A DNA stretch of 64,000 nt, taken from positions 31,763 through 95,762 of the forward strand of contig CAYLVM010000002.1 in the NCBI GenBank assembly GCA_964387145.1. The letters run 5' to 3'. Below are positions 20,712 to 45,548 of the stretch, one piece after another; positions within the stretch are counted from its first letter, which is position 1; each line of letters begins with the position of its first letter. The notes beneath the pieces are model-generated. The model did no database searches and was not told the DNA's origin. It saw only the letters and a program-made list of their open reading frames with translations. Made by a program: the position numbers and the translations under genes. Source of the stretch: an uncultured Acidimicrobiaceae bacterium (GTDB lineage: Bacteria; Actinomycetota; Acidimicrobiia; Spongiisociales; UBA5794).

Positions 20712-20805
20712 GCTTCGCAACCCCGACACGACAACAGAGAGACCAGACAGACCCCTTCTGACACCTGACACCTGTTGTCTGTTGTCTGTTGTCTACTGTT
20801 CCCTC

Positions 20806-21399
20806 ATGCCAGACTTCACCTGCACACGCTGTGACGAGAGATTCTCGCTCGCGCCTGCTCTCCTCGATCGATTCCCTGGATGGGTCCCCAAGCTGTGCCT
20901 TGCGTGCAAGGATGAACGAGGTGCAGCCTCGCGGCCGTCGACCTCGAAACCGGTCTCTGCTGCCGACCCGTCGTCCGGCGTGTTCACCGACGGAAGCGCA
21001 GTTCCCAACCCGGGTCCTGGTGGGTGGGGAACTGTGTACGTCATCGACGACGAGATCGTTGCAGAGGCCTACGGCTACGGCGGAGAGACCACGAACAACC
21101 GTATGGAGTTGATGGCACTCATCAACGCCGTTGACCTCGTTCCTGTGGGAACACAAGTAACTGTGTACTCGGACTCGAACCTCGCTGTGCGCACCATCAA
21201 CGAGTGGGCAGCAGGATGGGAACGCCGCGGCTGGAAGCGCAAGACAGGCCCCGTCGAGAACCTCGATCTCGTCAAGGAGGCGTACGCCGCGTTCAGGGCG
21301 AGGCCTGAACTGTCACTCGAGTGGATACGGGCACACGTCGGGTACCGCTGGAACGAGTACGCAGACGAACTGGCCAACCGGGGAAGGATGGAGAGGTGA
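20806..21399 (+). CDS. rnhA: Ribonuclease HI with an N-terminal Cys-rich (zinc-ribbon-like) extension
   Basis: RNase H core TDGSAVPNPGPGGWG...TNNRMELMALINAV...YSDSNL..; N-terminal CTRCDE...CLACKDE. Confidence 0.8.
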   Translation: MPDFTCTRCDERFSLAPALLDRFPGWVPKLCLACKDERGAASRPSTSKPVSAADPSSGVFTDGSAVPNPGPGGWGTVYVIDDEIVAEAYGYGGETTNNRMELMALINAVDLVPVGTQVTVYSDSNLAVRTINEWAAGWERRGWKRKTGPVENLDLVKEAYAAFRARPELSLEWIRAHVGYRWNEYADELANRGRMER

Positions 21400-22827: not shown

Positions 22828-22856
22828 AACGCATATATAAACGTATATGCGTATAC
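22828..22856. promoter_or_regulatory. Candidate ARG box / ArgR operator upstream of argC
   Basis: AT-rich inverted repeat CGCATATA-N6-TATATGCG within AACGCATATATAAACGTATATGCGTATAC, 25 bp upstream of the argC start, in an otherwise 65% GC genome. Confidence 0.45.
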
Positions 22857-24809: not shown

Positions 24810-25264
24810 GAGCCACAACCGAAGCACGGAGACGACTGATGAGATCCTTACTCGAAGGATCCGACGTCTCGAGTCAGGCCGAGCTCCGAGATGCGCTTGC
24901 GACTCAGGGTTTCGAGGTGACCCAGGCGACCGTGTCGCGTGACCTCGATGCGATCGGCGCGGTGCGGATCAAGGCCAAAGGAACCGTCACCTACCGGATC
25001 GGAGCCGGGGACGTTGCCCCCGAACGGATAGCCCTGTTCCAGGCAGTGGACGAGTTCGTCGAGTCGGTGGCGACGTCCGGCAACATCGTGATCCTCAAGG
25101 TGCCGCCGGGAGCAGCCCAGTTCGTTGCGAGCAGGATCGATGCTGCCGGCGTCGAAGGCGTCCTGGGAACGATTGCAGGGGACGACACCATCATGGTGAT
25201 CGCCGATGAAGCCGCGGGTGCAGAAGAAGTTTCGAAACGTGTACAGGGAACGGAGCGTTCATGA
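24806..25264 (+). CDS. argR: Arginine repressor
   Basis: 152 aa; winged HTH, then ArgR C-terminal domain ([12 protein letters not shown]). Confidence 0.85.
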
Positions 25265-26478
25265 GTAAGGACATCAAGAAGGTCGTGCTGGCATACAGCG
25301 GCGGGCTCGACACGTCGGTCATCCTCCGCTGGATCATCGAGGAGTACGGGGCGGAGGTCGTTGCGTACACCGCCGACGTCGGCCAGGGAGAGGAGACAGA
25401 AGAGGCGCGGGTCAAAGCGCTCGAGACGGGTGCCGTCGAGGCGATCTGTGAGGATCTTCGCGAGGAGTTCGTCGAGGAGTATGTGTTCCCGGCCTTCCGG
25501 GCGTCGTCTCTGTACGAGGGGTACTACCTGATGGGGACCTCGCTCGCGCGTCCGGTGATCTCAAAGGGTCTCGTTCGGGCGGCCATCGAAACGGGCGCCG
25601 ATGCGATCGCCCATGGTGCGACGGGCAAGGGGAACGATCAGGTCCGGTTCGAGCTTTCGGCGTACGCCCTCAAGCCAGACATCAAGGTCATCGCTCCGTG
25701 GAGGGAGTGGGATCTCAAGGGAAGGGCAGACTGCGTTGCCTACGCAGAGAAGTACGACATCCCGATATCGGTGACCCCGGACAGGCCGTACTCGATGGAT
25801 GCCAATCTCCTGCACATCTCCTACGAGGGTGGCGTCCTCGAGGACCCGTGGATCGGCCCATCGGCGGACATGTTCAAGATGACGACGGATCCCATAGATG
25901 CACCCGATGAGCCCGAGATCATCACCATCGGGTACGAGGCGGGCGATCCTGTCTCGATCAACGGAGAGCGACTTGCTCCCGTCGATCTGCTGACGAAGCT
26001 GAACCAGATTGGTGGTAAACACGGCGTGGGTCGGGTCGACATCGTCGAGAACCGGTTCGTGGGGATGAAGAGCCGCGGTGTGTACGAGACACCCGGTGGG
26101 ACGATCCTCTATCACGCCCACCGGGCAGTCGAGTCACTCACCCTCGACCGCGAGGTGGCACACCTGCGCGACGAGCTGTCGAACAAATACGCAGAGATGG
26201 TCTACAACGGGTTCTGGTTCGCACCCGAGCGTGAGGCCCTGCAACACTTCATGGATGATGTCCAGAAGCCGGTCACGGGTGAGGCACGCCTCAAGCTGTA
26301 CAAGGGTCAGGCCATCGTCGAGGGTCGTCGCTCAGACAGCCATGCACTCTACGATGAGGCGACGGTCACCTTCGAGGCTGACGATGTGTACGACCAGTCC
26401 GATGCTGAGGGCTTCATCCGCCTCCAGTCGCTCCGTCTCCGTACCTTTGCAGAGAAGCGTCTCGGTGGAGGGGAGTGA
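25261..26478 (+). CDS. argG: Argininosuccinate synthase
   Basis: 405 aa; [11 protein letters not shown]-loop. Confidence 0.95.
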
Positions 26479-26484
26479 GGAAGA

Positions 26485-26623
26485 GGTATCTGGTACTTGG
26501 TACTTGGTATCTGGTACTTGGCATTTCGTATCGAAGAGGGAACGGATGAGTTCATGACAGAACGTCGAGATCACCCGCTATATGTGTGCGCGCTCCAAGT
26601 ACCAAGTACCGAGTACCGAGTAC
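26485..26623. repeat. Inverted pair of tandem heptamer arrays (GGTACTT/GGTATCT x5 ... CCAAGTA/CCGAGTA x4) in the argG-argH intergenic region
   Basis: 26485-26522 GGTATCTGGTACTTGGTACTTGGTATCTGGTACTTGG and 26595-26623 CCAAGTACCAAGTACCGAGTACCGAGTAC are reverse complements of each other; predicted long hairpin with a ~72-nt loop. Confidence 0.6.
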
Positions 26624-26645
26624 AGCGAGCAACGCGAGCACTGCA

Positions 26646-28022
26646 ATGACCCTGTGGTCGGGAGGTCGCTTCGATGAAGGGCCGGCAGAAGCGCTCTGGC
26701 GGTTCACCGTCGATACGTCCGACCGCCGCATGCTCGGTGTTGACGTTCGCGGATCCCTGGCTCACGTCGCGATGCTCGGAGACGTCGGGTTGCTCGCTGG
26801 TGGAGAAGTCGAGGCGATCACCGAGGGTCTCGAGACCGTCGCGGGCGAGGCTGCAGGCGGATCGTTCGCCTTCCTCGATTCGGACGAGGACGTGCACAGC
26901 GCAGTCGAGCGCAGGCTCGGAGAGCTGATCGGCGATCTAGCAGGCAAGCTTCATACGGGACGGTCACGAAACGATCAGGTCGCGCTCGACCTGCGGCTCT
27001 ACCTGCTCGATGCGGTGGATGCGAGGTTGATCCAGATCGACAACCTGATCCGTGTCCTCATCGGGCAGGCCAAGGACGTCGGCGATGTCGTCGTTCCGAG
27101 CTACACCCACGTTCAACAGGCCCAGGCGGTCCCCCTCGCGCACCATCTCCTCGCGTATGCATGGATGCTGGTGCGCGATGCAGGCCGCTTCAGGGACGCC
27201 AGGGGGCGTATCGATGTGAGTCCGCTCGGCGCTGGAGCATCGGGAGGGTCGTCTCTCCCCCTCGACCCTGAGGCATCGGCCCGCCATCTCGAGATGAGCG
27301 CTGTCTTTGCGAACTCGATGGACGCGGTTGGTTCACGGGACTTCGCCGCGGAGTACGTCTGGTGCACGACCCAGACGATGGTCCATCTGTCTCGCTTCGC
27401 AGAGGAGCTGATCTTGTGGTGTACGAGCGAGTTCGGATGGGTCACCTTCTCGGACGCGTACACGACGGGATCGTCGGCGATGCCACACAAGAAGAACCCA
27501 GACATCGCCGAGCTCGTTCGGGGTAAGGCGTCGACGGTCATAGGTGACCTGACCGCGATCATGTCGATGCAGAAGGGTCTTCCCATGACGTACAACCGTG
27601 ATCTTCAGGAGGACAAGCGGTCGGTGTTCCACGCCGACGACACGCTCTCGGGAGCACTCGCAGCTCTTGCTGGGATGGTCGCTACGGCGAAGTTCCATCC
27701 GCCGGCTCCGTCTGCGTGGGTCACGGCGCTCGATCTCGCAGAGGTCCTCGTGGAGCGGGGGGTTCCCTTCCGGGAGGCTCACCACATCGTCGGCCGTCTC
27801 GTGTCGACGCTGGTCGCCACAGAGAGAAGTATCACCGATCTCACCGGCGTTGAACTCGTAGAGTTCGATGAGCGTTTCCTGTCCGCCGATGTTGAACGCC
27901 TCGACCCTGTTGGCTCGGTTGCCTATCGCAGGACTGCCGGCGGAGGGTCGATGGAGTCGGTTGTCGCACAGATATCCGACCTCGAGCGACTCCTTGTGCA
28001 GACGTCTGGATCGACTTCCTAG
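26646..28022 (+). CDS. argH: Argininosuccinate lyase
   Basis: Start MTLWSGGRF; fumarate lyase signature GSSAMPHKKNPD. Confidence 0.92.
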   Translation: MTLWSGGRFDEGPAEALWRFTVDTSDRRMLGVDVRGSLAHVAMLGDVGLLAGGEVEAITEGLETVAGEAAGGSFAFLDSDEDVHSAVERRLGELIGDLAGKLHTGRSRNDQVALDLRLYLLDAVDARLIQIDNLIRVLIGQAKDVGDVVVPSYTHVQQAQAVPLAHHLLAYAWMLVRDAGRFRDARGRIDVSPLGAGASGGSSLPLDPEASARHLEMSAVFANSMDAVGSRDFAAEYVWCTTQTMVHLSRFAEELILWCTSEFGWVTFSDAYTTGSSAMPHKKNPDIAELVRGKASTVIGDLTAIMSMQKGLPMTYNRDLQEDKRSVFHADDTLSGALAALAGMVATAKFHPPAPSAWVTALDLAEVLVERGVPFREAHHIVGRLVSTLVATERSITDLTGVELVEFDERFLSADVERLDPVGSVAYRRTAGGGSMESVVAQISDLERLLVQTSGSTS

Positions 28023-28287
28023 TTTCCTCGGCGTCGGTCAGGCAGCCCTTGCCGGTTCCCGACCGAAACATGCAGCACATGCAGCGCCGTCACAGTGGGG
28101 GACCACGCTCACCTTGAGGCCTGCTGCGGAGAAGAACGTCTCTATAGCGACGTTGCTGAGTGTGGTCAGATCGGTTGGAGTTGGGTTGGGTACCAGTTGC
28201 ATCGTGTTCATACCTGTACCGTATCGAGGGGGTATGACAGGAACGGATGGTGGCGGACAGTGCGTGACCGAAAGCTACTCTTGAGGT

Positions 28288-28635
28288 ATGGAACTCAAGA
28301 GATACGCAGACGCTGTCCCCTTCGAGTTCGGCGACTTCGAGTTGAGAGAGTTGACGCCGTCGGTGTTCAAGCTCGCTTCGTTCGCTGAAGTCATCGTGCC
28401 GATCGGAGTGGAGCGTCCCGCACGAGAGTCCGGCAAGGACCACCGCATGTACGTCTGTCTGCAGGGCGACCTCGAGTTCACCGTCGAGGAGGAGACGTTC
28501 CGGGTCACCAAGGGCGATGTGCTTCACATCGACAAGGGCGAGACGTACGGATTCCACAACGGTGGGTACGAGGAGGGCAGGCTCCTGTTGTTGCGTGTTC
28601 CTGGACCGGTGTTGCCTGGGGCGGGACAGCCCTGA
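28288..28635 (+). CDS. Cupin domain protein
   Basis: 115 aa; cupin motifs (YVCLQGDLEF, GDVLHIDKGETYGF). Confidence 0.55.
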   Translation: MELKRYADAVPFEFGDFELRELTPSVFKLASFAEVIVPIGVERPARESGKDHRMYVCLQGDLEFTVEEETFRVTKGDVLHIDKGETYGFHNGGYEEGRLLLLRVPGPVLPGAGQP

Positions 28636-31154: not shown

Positions 31155-32420
31155 ATGAGACAAGGCAAGCGCTCGGTTCGTCTGCTCATGTTGCTCGTGG
31201 TGTTCGCCCTTGTGGCCGCCGCGTGTAGCAGTTCGAGCGAAGAGACGACGACCACAGCCGCCAGTGGCGATGAGGGAACGACGACCACAGCGGCGGCCAT
31301 GCCCGGCGAGGGGTTCAAGTTCGGGATGATCCTCGTGGGCCCTGAGAACGACCGTGGCTGGTCACAGGCTCACTACGAGGCAGGCAAGTACATCGAGGAG
31401 ATGACCGGTGCCGAGATGATCTCTCTCGACACCGTGAACCCCGCCGACCGTCCCGAGACGTCGGTGGAGCAGGTTGTCAGCGACATGATCGATCAGGGCG
31501 CGCAACTCATCTTCGCGACATCCGACGACATGAAGGACGGCATCGAAGCTGCTGCCGCTGAGCACCCCGACGTACCGATGATCTGGTCCTCCGGTGACAG
31601 TGCCTGGGAGCAAGGTGAGGCGTACCGCGCTGATCTCTCGAATCTTGGAAACATCATGGGCAGAATGACCATCGGCAAGGCGATCGCAGGCTGCGCCGCA
31701 GCGCTGACGTCCAGCACGGGCAACATCGCCTACCTCGGACCGCTGATCAACGATGAGACCCGTAGATTGGCCAGTTCTGTGTACCTCGGTGCCCAGGCCT
31801 GTTGGGAGCTTGCAGGGAACAACCCCGACAACCTCAACATGGAAGTCAACTGGATCGGCTTCTGGTTCAACATCCCAGGTGTGACGCTCGATCCGACCGA
31901 AGTCACGAACGCCTTCTTCGATGGCGGCGTCGACGTCGTCATCTCCGGTATCGACACGACCGAAGCACTCGTCGTGACAGGCCAGCGTGCAGCAGCAGGT
32001 GAGGACGTATGGGCGATCCCGTACGACTACGTCGGCGCGTGCTCGGAAGCACCGGAAGTCTGTCTCGGCGTCCCCTACTTCAACTGGGGACCCTCGTACC
32101 TCGACGTTGCAACGTCGGTCATGAACGGTACGTACGAACGCCAGTTCCAGTGGATCGGCCCGGACTGGACAGACATCAACAACCCGGACACATCGATGAT
32201 CGGCTGGGTGACCGGCGATGCACTGTCACCAGATGATGCTGCCACTCTCGATACGTTCATCGAGGGTCTCGGCGATGGCTCGATCGACCTGTTCGTCGGT
32301 CCCTTGAACTACCAGGACGGCACACCCTTCCTCGCCGACGGCGAGAAGGGATCGGACGTCCAGATCTGGTACATGAAGCAACTGCTCGAAGGCATGGAGG
32401 GCGCAAGCTCCTCCGGCTGA
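31155..32420 (+). CDS. BMP-family (PnrA/Med-like) ABC transporter substrate-binding lipoprotein
   Basis: Lipoprotein signal LLMLLVVFALVAAACSS; BMP-family sequence; followed by ABC ATPase and two permeases. Confidence 0.85.
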   Translation: MRQGKRSVRLLMLLVVFALVAAACSSSSEETTTTAASGDEGTTTTAAAMPGEGFKFGMILVGPENDRGWSQAHYEAGKYIEEMTGAEMISLDTVNPADRPETSVEQVVSDMIDQGAQLIFATSDDMKDGIEAAAAEHPDVPMIWSSGDSAWEQGEAYRADLSNLGNIMGRMTIGKAIAGCAAALTSSTGNIAYLGPLINDETRRLASSVYLGAQACWELAGNNPDNLNMEVNWIGFWFNIPGVTLDPTEVTNAFFDGGVDVVISGIDTTEALVVTGQRAAAGEDVWAIPYDYVGACSEAPEVCLGVPYFNWGPSYLDVATSVMNGTYERQFQWIGPDWTDINNPDTSMIGWVTGDALSPDDAATLDTFIEGLGDGSIDLFVGPLNYQDGTPFLADGEKGSDVQIWYMKQLLEGMEGASSSG

Positions 32421-32446
32421 GCGAGACCACACACGATGGAAGGGGG

Positions 32447-32480
32447 AGGTTCGTGAGAACCTCCCCCTTCCGCCATCTGA
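32447..32480 (+). terminator. Stem-loop after the BMP lipoprotein gene
   Basis: GGAAGGGGGAGGTTC-gtgag-AACCTCCCCCTTCC, perfect 15-bp stem, 27 bp after the stop. Confidence 0.6.
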
Positions 32481-32495
32481 GCCCCACCTGGTTCT

Positions 32496-32524
32496 AGATA
32501 CCAGATACCAAGTACCGAGTACCC
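32496..32524. repeat. CCRRGTA heptamer array (copy B)
   Basis: AGATACCAGATACCAAGTACCGAGTACCC. Confidence 0.5.
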
Positions 32525-32532
32525 TTCTCCCC

Positions 32533-33999
32533 ATGGCGCTCGAGATTCGGGACATCCACAAGTACTTCGGTCCTGTGCGTGCCAGTGATGGAGTCTCGTT
32601 CACCATCGAGTCGGGAACGCTTCACGGTGTTCTCGGTGAGAACGGTGCGGGCAAGTCCACGTTGATGAAGATCCTCTCGGGGTTCTACGAAGCGGACTCC
32701 GGTGAAGTCGTTCTCGATGGGGAGGTCCTGGATCTCCGTTCACCGGCAGACGCGATCAAGGTCGGCATCGGCATGCTGCATCAGGATCCACTTGTCTTCC
32801 TCCCGTTCTCCGTACTCGACAACTTCGTGTTGGGCGCACCCGGTGGACTCCGCCTCGACCGCTCCGAAGCACAGAGCGAACTCGCACGAGTGAGCACCGA
32901 CCTCGGTTTCCACTTCGACCCCACGGTCGCCGCCGGTGACCTGACGGTCGGAGAGCGCCAGCAGCTGGCTATCACGCGCCTCATGTGGCTCGGAGCCAAG
33001 GTGCTCATCTTCGATGAGCCGACCACCGGCATCTCAGCGACACAGCGTGCGCAGCTGTTCGCGACGCTCAAGCGTCTTGCACAGGACGGGCTGATCGTGC
33101 TGTTCGTTTCACACAAGCTCGAAGAGGTCGAAGAGTTGTGCGACTCGGTGACGGTCATCCGACAGGGAAAGGTCGTATACGAGGCAGATATGCCGGTGTC
33201 GTCCGAGACGCTTGTCGCCGAGATGTTCGGCAAGATCTTCGTTCAAGAGGACCACCCATCCATCGAGACGGGCGCCCCACTCCTGGTGTGCCGTGACCTC
33301 GTGCTCGATGAAGGAATGACCCACATCGAGACCCTCGACTTCGAGATCGCTTCGGGGGAGGTCGTCGGCCTCGCAGGCCTCGAGGGCAGTGGCCAGAGGA
33401 CCCTGTTGCGAGCCTGTGCAGGACTCATCGATCCGACCGAGGGGACGCTCACCGTCGACGGGGCCAACCTCACCGGGGCCTCATACCGGGACCACCTGCA
33501 AGCAGGCGTGCACTATCTCCCAGCGGGCCGTCTCGAGGAAGGCCTGGTCGAAGGTATCTCGATCGCCGAGCACCTCGTCCTCGTCTCGGATGACACGAGC
33601 TTCTTCATCGACTGGAAGAAAGCGGACGACGTGGCAGCAAGGGAGATCGGCGAGTACTCGATCAAGGGACGCCCTGATTCCAACGCCGAGACCCTCTCGG
33701 GTGGGAACCAGCAGCGGCTGCTCCTTGCAATGATCCCGGATGCAGTGCGATTGCTTCTTCTCGAGCATCCCACGCGTGGGCTCGATGTCGAGTCTGCCGC
33801 CTACGTGTGGACGCGGCTGCTCGAGCGCCGGGGCAGCGGCACGTCGATCATGTTCGCCTCAGCAGACCTCGACGAGTTGCTGCGTTACAGCGACCGGATC
33901 GTCGTGTTCTTCGGGGGTGACGTCTTTGCCACGCGAGACGCTGCCGAGACGGATGGTGAGGAACTCGGCTACCTCATCGGCGGAAAGGAGCGGGTGTGA
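32533..33999 (+). CDS. ABC transporter ATP-binding protein, duplicated ABC domains (nucleoside/sugar type)
   Basis: Two Walker A boxes (GENGAGKST; GLEGSGQRT) and two signature motifs (LTVGERQQLAI; LSGGNQQRLLLA). Confidence 0.9.
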   Translation: MALEIRDIHKYFGPVRASDGVSFTIESGTLHGVLGENGAGKSTLMKILSGFYEADSGEVVLDGEVLDLRSPADAIKVGIGMLHQDPLVFLPFSVLDNFVLGAPGGLRLDRSEAQSELARVSTDLGFHFDPTVAAGDLTVGERQQLAITRLMWLGAKVLIFDEPTTGISATQRAQLFATLKRLAQDGLIVLFVSHKLEEVEELCDSVTVIRQGKVVYEADMPVSSETLVAEMFGKIFVQEDHPSIETGAPLLVCRDLVLDEGMTHIETLDFEIASGEVVGLAGLEGSGQRTLLRACAGLIDPTEGTLTVDGANLTGASYRDHLQAGVHYLPAGRLEEGLVEGISIAEHLVLVSDDTSFFIDWKKADDVAAREIGEYSIKGRPDSNAETLSGGNQQRLLLAMIPDAVRLLLLEHPTRGLDVESAAYVWTRLLERRGSGTSIMFASADLDELLRYSDRIVVFFGGDVFATRDAAETDGEELGYLIGGKERV

Positions 34000-43088: not shown

Positions 43089-43607
43089 CTAGTTCTGTGA
43101 GGCAACGCCACGTTCGGCTGCGACGAGACCGTCGAGCCAGGCGATGTCCGATTCTGCGGTCGCCATGGCGTGCTCCATCAGCGCGAGCCGGTAGCGGTCC
43201 TGGTTCTCTGTGTTCGAGCGGGCGTCGATGAGGATCTCGCGGGACGCCTTGAGATGGTGTGAGAGTGTTGCCCTGCGGTTCTCGAGGACCTGCACTCGCC
43301 GGTTCGTGGGAAGGTGGCCGAGGAAGGCGAGCCGGATCTGGAACGCCCGGTCGGTCTCGCTTGCGTCGGGATCGGCTTTGAGGAGCGTGTCGAATATCTC
43401 GCGGCCTTCATCGGTGACCTGGTACGCCTTGCGACGGCCGGTACCGCTCACAGCAGAGATCGCCCCGCGCTTTTCGAGGCGGCGCAACGCCGGGTACAGC
43501 GACCCGAACGACACCTTCCAGAACCCGAGTTCACCCAGGGCGCGCTTGAGCTCGTACCCGTGGCGGGCACGCTCCATCAAGAGACCGAGAACGGCGAAGT
43601 CCAACAT
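43089..43607 (-). CDS. PadR family transcriptional regulator
   Basis: 172 aa; winged HTH ([33 protein letters not shown]). Confidence 0.8.
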
Positions 43608-43617
43608 CGTGGAGCCA

Positions 43618-43658
43618 GTCTATATCGATTCGATACATACGTCTATATCGAACCGATA
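43618..43658. promoter_or_regulatory. Candidate PadR operator: two 18-bp direct repeats, each an internal palindrome
   Basis: GTCTATATCGATTCGATA cataC GTCTATATCGAACCGATA, AT-rich, immediately upstream of the padR start. Confidence 0.45.
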
Positions 43659-43806
43659 TACGACTTTCGCGTTCTCGTCGAGTCTTGCCGAGCGTCATCG
43701 AGGGTCCAGTCGGTCCACCGAGGCCATGAGTAGCGCACAGACCTGGCGTGATGACGCACAGAAGAGGTGAAGTGACATGCTGTGTTCGAGCAGGACGTAC
43801 CTGCTG

Positions 43807-43837
43807 CCAAGTACCAGGTACCGAGTACCAGGTACCG
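43807..43837. repeat. CCRRGTA heptamer array (copy C)
   Basis: CCAAGTACCAGGTACCGAGTACCAGGTACCG. Confidence 0.5.
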
Positions 43838-43859
43838 CTCAGCCCCCAGGGCGGAGCGG

Positions 43860-45548
43860 CTAACTCAGCCCAACAACGTTGCCATCTGCGTCGATGTCGA
43901 TCGAGTGGGCTGCAGGATGGAGGCCGAGCCCGGGCATGCGGTTGATCGAGCCCGTCAACGGAAGGACGAACCCGGCGCCGGCAACGAGCTGCACCTCACG
44001 CACCGGAAGCGTCCACCCCGTCGGGGCACCGAGCAACGCAGGGTTGTGACTGAAGGAGTACTGCGTCTTGGCCATACAGATCGGGAGATTGCCGTATCCG
44101 TGCGCCTCGTAGTCGGCGAGCTGACGTTTCGCCTTGATGTCGTACTCGACGCCATCTGCACCGTAGACCTTCGTGGCGATCGTCTCGATCTTTTCGGTGA
44201 GCGTCATGTCGGGCGTATAGAGGGGCGCAAAGTTCGATCCGTGCTCGGCAGCCTCTCGTACGGCCTCTGCAAGGGCAACCATGCCCTCTGCACCCCTGCT
44301 GAAGGGCTCGGCGATAGCCCACGCAGCGCCCTCCTCCTCGGCGATGGCACCGATCGCTGCATGCTCGGATGCGTGATCGGTCGGGAAGCTGTTGACGGCG
44401 ATGACCGGGATCACCCCGTGCTGGCGAATGTTGGCGATGTGCCTTCGCAGGTTCGCTGCTCCCGCCATGACGTCTTCGGGACTTTCGGCGACCATCTCTT
44501 CGGGAAGCGGCTTGCCTGCTTTGACCTGGAACTTCCCCGAGTTCAGCTTCAATGCGCGAACGGTTGCAACGATGACCGCGACATCGGGTGACATGCCCGA
44601 CGCTGCACACTTGAGATTGAAGAACTTCTCAGCACCGACATCGGACCCGAAGCCGGCCTCGGTGATGAGGTAGCTGCCGCTGCGGATTCCGACCTGGTCC
44701 GCAACGATGGACGAGTTTCCGTGCGCGATGTTGGCGAACGGTCCGGTGTGGACGAGCGCTGGTGTTCCCTCGAGGGTCTGCATGAGGTTCGGGTTGAGCG
44801 CATCCTTGAGAAGCACCGTCATCGCCCCTGCGCCCTTGATCTGCTCAGCGGTGACCGGGTTCTTGTGCCGGTCGTAGCCGATGACGATCCGACCCAGACG
44901 CTCGCGGAGATCCTGCAGGCTCGTTGCGAGACCGAGGACGGCCATCAGCTCAGAAGCTGCCGTGATATCGAAACCGCCCTCACGGGGGATGCCGTCGAGT
45001 GTCGTTCCGAGGCCGACCACGATGTTGCGCAGTGCCCGGTCGTTGACATCCATGACACGACGCCACGAAACGCGCTTGATGTTGATCGACAGCTGGTTGC
45101 CCTGGTAGATGTGGTTGTCGATCAGAGCGGCGAGGAGGTTGTTGGCTGCAGTCACAGCGTGGAAGTCACCGGTGAGGTGGAGGTTGAGTTCCTCCATCGG
45201 GACGAGCTGGGAGTATCCGCCGCCGGCGGCGCCACCCTTGATCCCGAACGTCGGGCCGAGGGAAGGCTGACGCAAGGTCAGGATCGCCTGCTCGTCGAGC
45301 AGCTTGAAGCCCTGGGCGAGGCCGACCGACACCGTGGTCTTACCTTCACCGAACGGCGTTGGATTCACCGCGGTCACCAGCACGTACTTGGCGCGAGGCT
45401 CCCCCATGTGCTCAAGAGCTTCGAGCTTGATCTTCGCGAGTCCGTGGCCACGTTGTTCGACGAACTCATCCGGAATGCCCATGTCCTCGGCAATGTCATG
45501 GATCGGGCGAAGTTCTACTGATCTGGCGATTTCTAGGTCGGTACGCAT
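43860..45548 (-). CDS. fhs: Formate--tetrahydrofolate ligase
   Basis: 562 aa; FTHFS family sequence (TPFGEGKTT). Confidence 0.95.
   Translation of the reverse strand: MRTDLEIARSVELRPIHDIAEDMGIPDEFVEQRGHGLAKIKLEALEHMGEPRAKYVLVTAVNPTPFGEGKTTVSVGLAQGFKLLDEQAILTLRQPSLGPTFGIKGGAAGGGYSQLVPMEELNLHLTGDFHAVTAANNLLAALIDNHIYQGNQLSINIKRVSWRRVMDVNDRALRNIVVGLGTTLDGIPREGGFDITAASELMAVLGLATSLQDLRERLGRIVIGYDRHKNPVTAEQIKGAGAMTVLLKDALNPNLMQTLEGTPALVHTGPFANIAHGNSSIVADQVGIRSGSYLITEAGFGSDVGAEKFFNLKCAASGMSPDVAVIVATVRALKLNSGKFQVKAGKPLPEEMVAESPEDVMAGAANLRRHIANIRQHGVIPVIAVNSFPTDHASEHAAIGAIAEEEGAAWAIAEPFSRGAEGMVALAEAVREAAEHGSNFAPLYTPDMTLTEKIETIATKVYGADGVEYDIKAKRQLADYEAHGYGNLPICMAKTQYSFSHNPALLGAPTGWTLPVREVQLVAGAGFVLPLTGSINRMPGLGLHPAAHSIDIDADGNVVGLS

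Follow-up and report, generated by a model that had tools for sequence, protein, structure and literature searches.

The window analysed here, 64,000 nt of DNA from an uncultured Acidimicrobiaceae bacterium, exhibits tandem arrays of heptanucleotides in five places. Four arrays, at three loci, belong to one family with the unit CCRRRTA, and the remaining array is made of other units. The flanking genes, assigned by Pfam, include all those that an initial annotation of this sequence had named: argG, argH, the gene of a Bmp-family binding protein, an ABC ATPase gene, fhs and padR. The arrays and their neighbours are located as follows.

20758-20799, plus strand: heptamer array with units of a different family, (CTGACAC)2 (CTGTTGT)3 CTACTGT
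20806-21399: RNase H gene
25261-26478: argG
26485-26521, minus strand: heptamer array, reading GGTATCT GGTACTT GGTACTT GGTATCT GGTACTT GG on the plus (mRNA) strand
26522-26594, plus strand: 73-nt spacer separating the two inverted argG-argH arrays
26595-26623, plus strand: heptamer array, CCAAGTA CCAAGTA CCGAGTA CCGAGTA C
26646-28022: argH
31188-32420: Bmp gene
32438-32471, plus strand: G+C-rich hairpin 3' of the Bmp gene, GGAAGGGGGAGG / CCTCCCCCTTCC, without a T tract
32494-32524, plus strand: heptamer array, CTAGATA CCAGATA CCAAGTA CCGAGTA CC
32533-33999: ABC ATPase gene
43089-43607, minus strand: padR
43807-43837, plus strand: heptamer array, CCAAGTA CCAGGTA CCGAGTA CCAGGTA CC
43860-45548, minus strand: fhs

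All five arrays are intergenic, and their flanking genes are co-directional. The array downstream of argG consists of five CCRRRTA units on the minus strand, its first base being 7 nt past the argG stop (26478). Its partner lies just upstream of the argH start, as had been claimed, with the ATG (26646) 22 nt beyond the array. The array 32494-32524, preceded by the Bmp-gene hairpin that is conserved in relatives, is followed by the pyrimidine-rich CTTCTCCCC and by the ABC ATPase ATG at 32533, 8 nt beyond the array and without a Shine-Dalgarno (SD) motif. The array 43807-43837, which reads GGTACCT GGTACTC GGTACCT GGTACTT GG on the transcribed (minus) strand, is located 22 nt past the fhs stop codon and about 200 nt upstream of padR, between two small hairpins. 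Between the array of other units and the RNase H ATG (20806) lie 6 nt, TCCCTC.

The two-unit pattern CCRRRTACCRRRTACC (at most one mismatch) exhibits 13 overlapping matches in the window, all within the four CCRRRTA arrays, against 0.04 in shuffled sequences. TRF detected period-7 arrays at the same places. The CCRRGTA arrays reported initially are thus real and dispersed. Scanned without a predefined pattern for self-similarity at a lag of 7, the window yielded five arrays, against 0.4 in shuffles; the four loci listed in the initial annotation are all among them, and the fifth array (20758-20799, with different units) had been missed. The same scan of the window revealed no arrays at periods 4, 5, 6, 8, 10, 11 and 13, and a few of the coding type at periods 9 and 12. 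Apart from multiples of three, 7 is the only period represented by arrays in the window. Two smaller points of the earlier description need revision: the G+C content of the window is 62.3% rather than 65%, and the GGTACC palindromes, present at 43817 and 43831, are a mere consequence of CCAGGTA units.

Variation among the units is strongly confined. In 35 units of the CCRRGTA family, 28 of 105 bases at the three purine positions vary, always between A and G, and the C-C...T-A core (TACC) deviates at four of 140 positions. Exact matches to the ArgG protein were found only on short metagenome contigs (n = 6), and four of these six independent contigs end inside one of the two argG-argH arrays, as expected of a repeat present in many genomic copies. 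An exact look-up of the ArgH protein returned no record. The nearest ArgH relatives are 79-80% identical, besides one 100% match in another metagenome assembly, and the named homologues are from Acidimicrobiia or Actinomycetota metagenome-assembled genomes. A 19-mer from the argG-argH spacer, searched against metagenomes, gave only chance matches to unrelated coding DNA. Both argH and the RNase H gene exhibit spurious in-frame upstream start codons that read through the arrays. The arrays described here fragment metagenome assemblies and can mislead the calling of start codons.

Because the arrays lie between co-directional genes and close to stop or start codons, they very probably belong to mRNAs and are co-transcribed with their neighbours. 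Promoter and terminator scans detected nothing at the arrays, actinobacterial promoters being poorly covered by the scan. An intrinsic terminator was rejected as an identity for the arrays, given that no terminator-like site coincides with any of them and that the inverted arms are 73 nt apart. Three of the five window arrays, together with their counterparts in relatives, precede starts without an SD motif, and two window arrays follow stop codons. An SD-like motif is present in none of eight array-led starts, compared with 43 of 109 other starts (p = 0.026, the eight not being all independent). A pyrimidine-rich stretch stands before the array-led ATGs, namely CTTCTCCCC and TCCCTC in the window and CTGCTCCGC, TCTCCGTCC, CTCTCCCC and CCTTCCTCCC in relatives. 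Within the lineage, TACC arrays located before starts have the CCRRGUA sense in four of five cases, and those located after stops have the GGUAYYU sense in three of three. We discarded the idea that the arrays make leaders less structured, as the folding energies exhibit no difference (about -13.6 kcal/mol, versus -14.7 kcal/mol for other genes).

The two argG-argH arrays are inverted relative to each other. Segments 26493-26521 and 26595-26623 are complementary over 29 nt (86% Watson-Crick pairs) and 73 nt apart. The long hairpin proposed in the initial annotation is therefore possible, with arms of 29 nt instead of ~38 bp. The RNA fold of the inverted pair has an energy of -62.4 kcal/mol (z = -4.1). 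The fold is more stable on the sense than on the antisense strand in the window (-62.4 versus -55.1 kcal/mol), and the order is reversed in a syntenic relative, L127 (-52.1 versus -54.5 kcal/mol); a sense-strand preference of the hairpin through G-U pairs is thus not consistent. Rfam gave no match at the gathering score in the window, and none at E ≤ 10 in 26400-26700. With no consistent strand preference and no Rfam match, the structured RNA element initially suggested is plausible for the inverted pair only.

The inverted-pair architecture recurs in the argG-argH spacer of L127 with a different sequence. The spacer as a whole is only 49% identical between the window and L127, and its central 73 nt (26522-26594) exhibit no similarity to the L127 counterpart. 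The L127 pair consists of GACAGAC-type heptamers on the left and GTCTGKT/ATCTGGT-type heptamers on the right, and its fold spans the whole interval between the stop and start codons. In L314 the spacer is 315 nt long and packed with GTTCACA, ATACGGA and GCGGATG arrays; it also contains a tandemly duplicated module of ~82 nt. The L130 spacer holds only a short palindrome, and L317 has essentially no spacer between the two genes. Two side observations were made here. In L316 (8713-9928), on a long-read-style contig, argG is called as three overlapping ORFs, which indicates frameshifts due to a pseudogene or an assembly error. A short repeat based on GCGAGC with 8-9 nt spacing (AGCGAGCAACGCGAGCA; GCGAGCCTGCGAGCGAGG...CTGCGAGCCTGCGAGCC) occurs at 26624-26645 of the window, at 1130-1175 of L129 and in L087, and such repeats adjoin or replace heptamer arrays in several Acidimicrobiia.

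We compared seven syntenic relatives with the window, and the fhs-padR region with L151 and L154. Arrays recur at orthologous positions in some relatives, which was the check proposed with the initial annotation: they are kept before the ABC ATPase gene, before the RNase H gene and after fhs. The Bmp-ABC spacer of L127 reads CCAGATT CCAAGTA CCAAGTA CCGAGTA CC, followed by CTGCTCCGC and ATG, nearly as in the window. In L129 and L315 this spacer contains no array. A lone ACCGAGTA unit is found there, likewise 11 nt from the ABC ATPase ATG, and represents either the seed or the remnant of an array. The RNase H leader is 86% identical to that of L127, the array differing by unit changes and an insertion; it contains other heptamers in L314 and none in L315-L317. 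The fhs-padR array of L151 and L154 is 13-14 nt shorter and has altered units (GGTACTC GGTACCT GGTATCG GGTATGT). L130 carries CCAAGTA-family arrays elsewhere, in other spacers, including one that lies 9 nt before the cupin ATG.

A scan of the syntenic regions found no heptamer arrays in L129, L315 and L316, and array density across the relatives ranges from 0 in 21 kb (L315, L316) to 11 in 15 kb (L314). The arrays found in the relatives likewise have a period of 7, none occurring at other periods not divisible by three. The 11 arrays of L314 (925-14180; JGI 3300021514) belong to three other families (GTTCACA, GCGGATG, ATACGGA). That contig also exhibits inverted pairs upstream of its RNase H and cupin genes, and the gene caller placed its RNase H and argH starts inside arrays. 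This lineage provides a clean comparative series, the one gene order (RNase H, argC-B-R-G-H, cupin, Bmp-ABC) occurring without arrays, next to a lone seed unit, with arrays of four units, with inverted pairs, or with a burst comprising 11 arrays from other families. Such a series makes it testable whether the birth of arrays is purely mutational, whether a habit of four units depends on G-quadruplexes, as it does not here, and whether arrays substitute for Shine-Dalgarno sequences.

Between the window and L127, identity is 74-86% in the leaders of the ABC ATPase and RNase H genes, and 41-52% at four-fold degenerate sites, which are near saturation. The arrays are thus conserved above the neutral rate when compared with four-fold sites, but not when compared with other spacers, which are 76-91% identical between L001 and L127. 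Since the arrays are conserved no better than these spacers, persistence alone is no proof of selection on the arrays. The contrast between the L001-L127 spacers and their flanking four-fold sites (only 41-52% identical) is an observation in its own right; the spacers of this lineage seem unusually constrained, or the synonymous sites composition-driven. Within the species the arrays prove stable: five assemblies share an identical Bmp-ABC spacer and six an identical fhs-padR spacer, and the argG-argH spacer of L001 departs by a single G-to-A substitution, located in one unit. Array copy number is identical across the 5-6 assemblies, a small set that comes from different samples.

Several other features were noticed near the arrays. 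A palindromic ATATGCGTATAC (window 22845-22856) occurs once in the window, ~25 nt ahead of the argC start. It is also conserved in L127, L001 and L130 (catatgcgtata) and is probably the ArgR operator of the argC-B-R-G-H cluster. Upstream of padR, two 18-nt direct repeats GTCTATATCGAWYCGATA (window 43618-43660) overlap with a 20-nt inverted repeat and are 100% conserved in 10 of 10 contigs; they are probably the PadR autoregulatory operator. In the comparison of window 43089-43860 with L151 and L154, divergence shifts sharply within the fhs-padR spacer: padR is 99% identical at the nucleotide level (0.97 at four-fold sites) and the adjacent fhs 86% (0.53 at four-fold sites). This step suggests that recombination or transfer occurred recently, with the breakpoint falling between the array 43807-43837 and the putative padR operator. 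Finally, an antisense ORF of 57 residues, without a Pfam match, lies just downstream of argH (window 28022-28290 region). It is conserved in all syntenic relatives (L001 5707-5880, L127 11393-11566), and its start context is leaderless-looking (tacggtacgggtATG).

A scan of GTDB genomes for four TACC-anchored units yielded at least 120 loci, about 0.3 being expected in random sequence by our own estimate. The matches listed are from Acidimicrobiia (19 loci), Gemmatimonadota, Planctomycetota, Chloroflexota, Acidobacteriota, Bacteroidota, Patescibacteria and others. Within 843 kb of TACC-bearing sequence from these listed matches, we identified 301 period-7 arrays of 124 unit families, compared with 26 period-8 arrays and nine or fewer at any other period. 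TACC-bearing genomes are therefore rich in heptamers in general. As a control in viral contigs, we used three permutations of the core with unchanged composition; they occurred at 46, 76 and 34 loci, and TACC at 11. With permuted cores commoner in viral contigs and 124 families co-occurring, the TACC family was rejected as a special cross-phylum element. An inverted partner array within 300 nt accompanies 17 of 128 arrays from many phyla among the matches listed, and inverted partners also occur in L314. Across phyla, the listed matches exhibit no orientation bias relative to flanking genes, and the distances of 224 arrays to start codons revealed only the enrichment expected for short spacers. 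As an aside, three viral contigs of ~2.5 kb (L281, L288, L305), from several samples of one project, carry long (AACCTAA)n at both ends in the same orientation; these contigs could represent circular or tandem elements, or result from faulty assembly.

To our knowledge, intergenic heptanucleotide repeats have no established function or mechanism. We consider it moderately probable that the arrays described here are a lineage-specific family of heptanucleotide repeats born by slippage and kept in operon spacers, where they may play a modest cis-acting role as RNA. Duplication and deletion of units, by replication slippage or template switching, would create, resize and invert arrays, 7-nt units being favoured and the inverted copies arising through template switching. 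Birth by gain and loss of units fits the unit-sized differences among relatives, the single-unit seed or remnant, and the lineage-specific bursts with different units. Arrays would survive only where they are harmless, that is, in operon spacers. They would be transcribed within mRNAs, and any effect would be exerted in cis at the RNA level, independently of the particular unit sequence. Single arrays could provide a leader before SD-less starts with a pyrimidine-rich stretch ahead of the ATG. Inverted pairs, such as that between argG and argH, could form long intercistronic hairpins affecting mRNA stability, processing or downstream initiation. A function of the arrays, if any, is probably at the RNA level. 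Several observations argue against this explanation. The arrays are conserved no better than other spacers, the hairpin exhibits no consistent preference for the sense strand, local folding at array-led starts is the same as at other genes, and the confinement of variation to purines is a factor-like pattern that simple slippage does not predict.

Another reading, that the arrays are neutral microsatellites without function and merely tolerated in spacers, has a sizeable but minor chance of being correct. Neutrality agrees with an array density that varies from 0 to 11 per 15-21 kb among related genera, with the replacement of unit families between relatives, with the commonness of any heptamer family in viral contigs (permuted cores at 34-76 loci, TACC at 11), and with a conservation no higher than that of other spacers. 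It does not readily account for heterogeneous four-unit arrays that keep their unit order while four-fold sites are near saturation. The invariant core with its restricted variable positions, the recurrence of an inverted pair of different sequence at the same spacer, and the association with starts lacking an SD-like motif also argue for something more than tolerance.

The same invariant core is the best argument for a factor that reads it. In one such reading, which we regard as possible but doubtful, the arrays serve as a post-transcriptional platform. Four or five UACC (or GGUA) cores in a 7-nt register would bind a single-strand RNA-binding protein, one per heptamer, and this protein, for example of the cold-shock-domain or S1-type OB fold, would control initiation at SD-less starts. 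MacGregor made an equivalent proposal for TAACTGA repeats, with S1, cold-shock or CsrA proteins as the binders, and B. subtilis CspB is reported to occupy heptamer repeats with one protein per heptamer (PMC4679880). A platform of this kind is consistent with a constant core interrupted by three variable spacer purines, with three of the five window arrays and their counterparts in relatives ending 6-22 nt before starts without an SD-like motif, and with the orientations seen in the lineage (CCRRGUA in four of five pre-start arrays, GGUAYYU in three of three post-stop arrays). It is at odds with the unrelated unit families within one genome (three in L314, two in the window), the different units in the same spacer of relatives, and the lack of orientation bias among the listed matches across phyla. 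Close relatives, moreover, lack arrays at the same genes and presumably still express them. Several unit families per genome and the replacement of one family by another at a single spacer are evidence against any dedicated binding factor.

A more flexible version would avoid a fixed unit sequence, and we hold it to be unlikely. An OB-fold protein (cold-shock-domain or S1) with a 7-nt footprint would coat the array in register and thereby open or close the adjacent SD-less start, the inverted partner acting as a competing "off" hairpin. If correct, such a device would be the first functional reason for the preference for 7-nt units (STRR, TAACTGA, GGGNATC, CCRRGTA).

The main idea of the initial annotation was an array of DNA binding sites, which in general terms would be recognised by a nucleoid protein or a transcription factor. 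Similar cases are known: ToxR binds TTTTGAT heptads, and SARP regulators bind direct repeats of heptamers. Tandem direct repeats with a conserved core are suited to such sites, and three units make 21 bp, or two helical turns, a period that TRF also detected. The arrays lie, however, inside co-directional clusters at stops and starts, no promoter-like sites were found there, and the adjoining genes are unrelated housekeeping genes. A factor specific for CCRRGTA is further disfavoured by a second unit family in the same genome, by unrelated heptamers replacing the family in the same spacers of relatives, and by more than 100 other heptamer families co-occurring in genomes with TACC arrays. We consider binding sites of this kind quite improbable.

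Mobile-element ends or remnants (MITE- or REP-like) and hypermutable phase-variation switches are the least credible readings and very improbable, since the dispersed copies, the contigs that break inside them and the inverted pairs flanking a spacer are outweighed by the lack of any flanking or spacer sequence common to the four loci, the absence of visible target-site duplications, identical copy number in 5-6 assemblies (a small sample), and neighbours that are housekeeping genes (argG/argH, ABC transporter, fhs, RNase H) rather than surface or restriction-modification genes. REP/BIME or MITE elements were rejected on flanks and spacers that are unrelated between loci and between relatives, a phase-variable contingency SSR on the same copy-number and neighbour evidence, and a CRISPR-like reading was rejected as well.

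The initial interpretation as a whole is partly supported. Its statement that nothing in standard annotation explains the arrays does not hold, as dispersed intergenic tandem repeats of heptanucleotides are a described bacterial class (PMC4679880, PMC4692102). The arrays exhibit the marks of this class: 4-5 head-to-tail units in each of five arrays, several dispersed arrays that share a unit family (four in 64 kb, contig breaks, and L130), an excess of period 7 with restriction to non-coding DNA, and unit numbers and sequences that vary among relatives at the same spacer. According to Mrazek 2007, as summarised in PMC4679880 and PMC4692102, heptanucleotides dominate among long SSRs with units of 5-11 nt, and in many bacterial genomes, including those of Actinobacteria, no other long SSR is as abundant; polymerase slippage is suggested as the cause. 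The long SSRs outlined in these summaries resemble the window arrays in their tandem 7-nt units, many dispersed copies, non-coding excess, preference for period 7 and sporadic phylogenetic distribution that includes Actinobacteria. Neither the CCRRGTA family nor Acidimicrobiia is named in the summaries of long SSRs given by the two papers.

A close resemblance is to the GGGAATC repeats of Xanthomonas and the GGGGAYT repeats of Nostoc (Rehm et al. 2015, PMC4692102). There are ~180 GGGANTN arrays per Xanthomonas genome, with four units preferred (PMC4692102). Like those in the window, the Xanthomonas and Nostoc repeats are dispersed and made of about four heterogeneous units in which some positions are conserved and others vary; they are found between co-oriented ORFs, no more than 50 bp from a start or stop, form some inverted pairs, and occur at the same gene pairs in related species with varying length and sequence (PMC4692102). 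They differ in being G-rich and forming G-quadruplexes in vitro (PMC4692102). The CCRRGTA / TACYYGG units hold no GGG, so the arrays are not G-quadruplex-type heptamers (GGGNATC), and quadruplex formation cannot explain the habit of four units here.

TAACTGA repeats, known from marine Beggiatoaceae, cyanobacteria and some Bacteroidetes, number 169 sets in one Beggiatoaceae genome, mostly just before starts without ribosome-binding sites (MacGregor 2015, PMC4679880). They share with the window arrays a size of 2-6 units, a mostly intergenic location and downstream genes of unrelated function (PMC4679880). The unit is different, which rules out membership of the TAACTGA network for CCRRGTA; the window arrays precede a start in about three of five cases and occur in both orientations. 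Inverted pairs, frequent among the arrays described here, are represented once among 170 TAACTGA sets (PMC4679880). Three tandem heptamers are also known in Calothrix, according to the account in PMC4692102. The CCRRGTA arrays are thus a new unit family within the known class of intergenic 7-nucleotide tandem repeats. They are a new example from a little-studied class of Actinomycetota, the Acidimicrobiia, and not the site of a newly found specific factor. Cyanobacterial STRR heptamers, with units CCCCAGT, TTGGTCA and CAACAGT, were reportedly described by Mazel et al. in 1990. They are likewise said to be tandem heptanucleotides with several unit families per genome, in about a hundred copies, and differ from the window arrays in their units and phylum.
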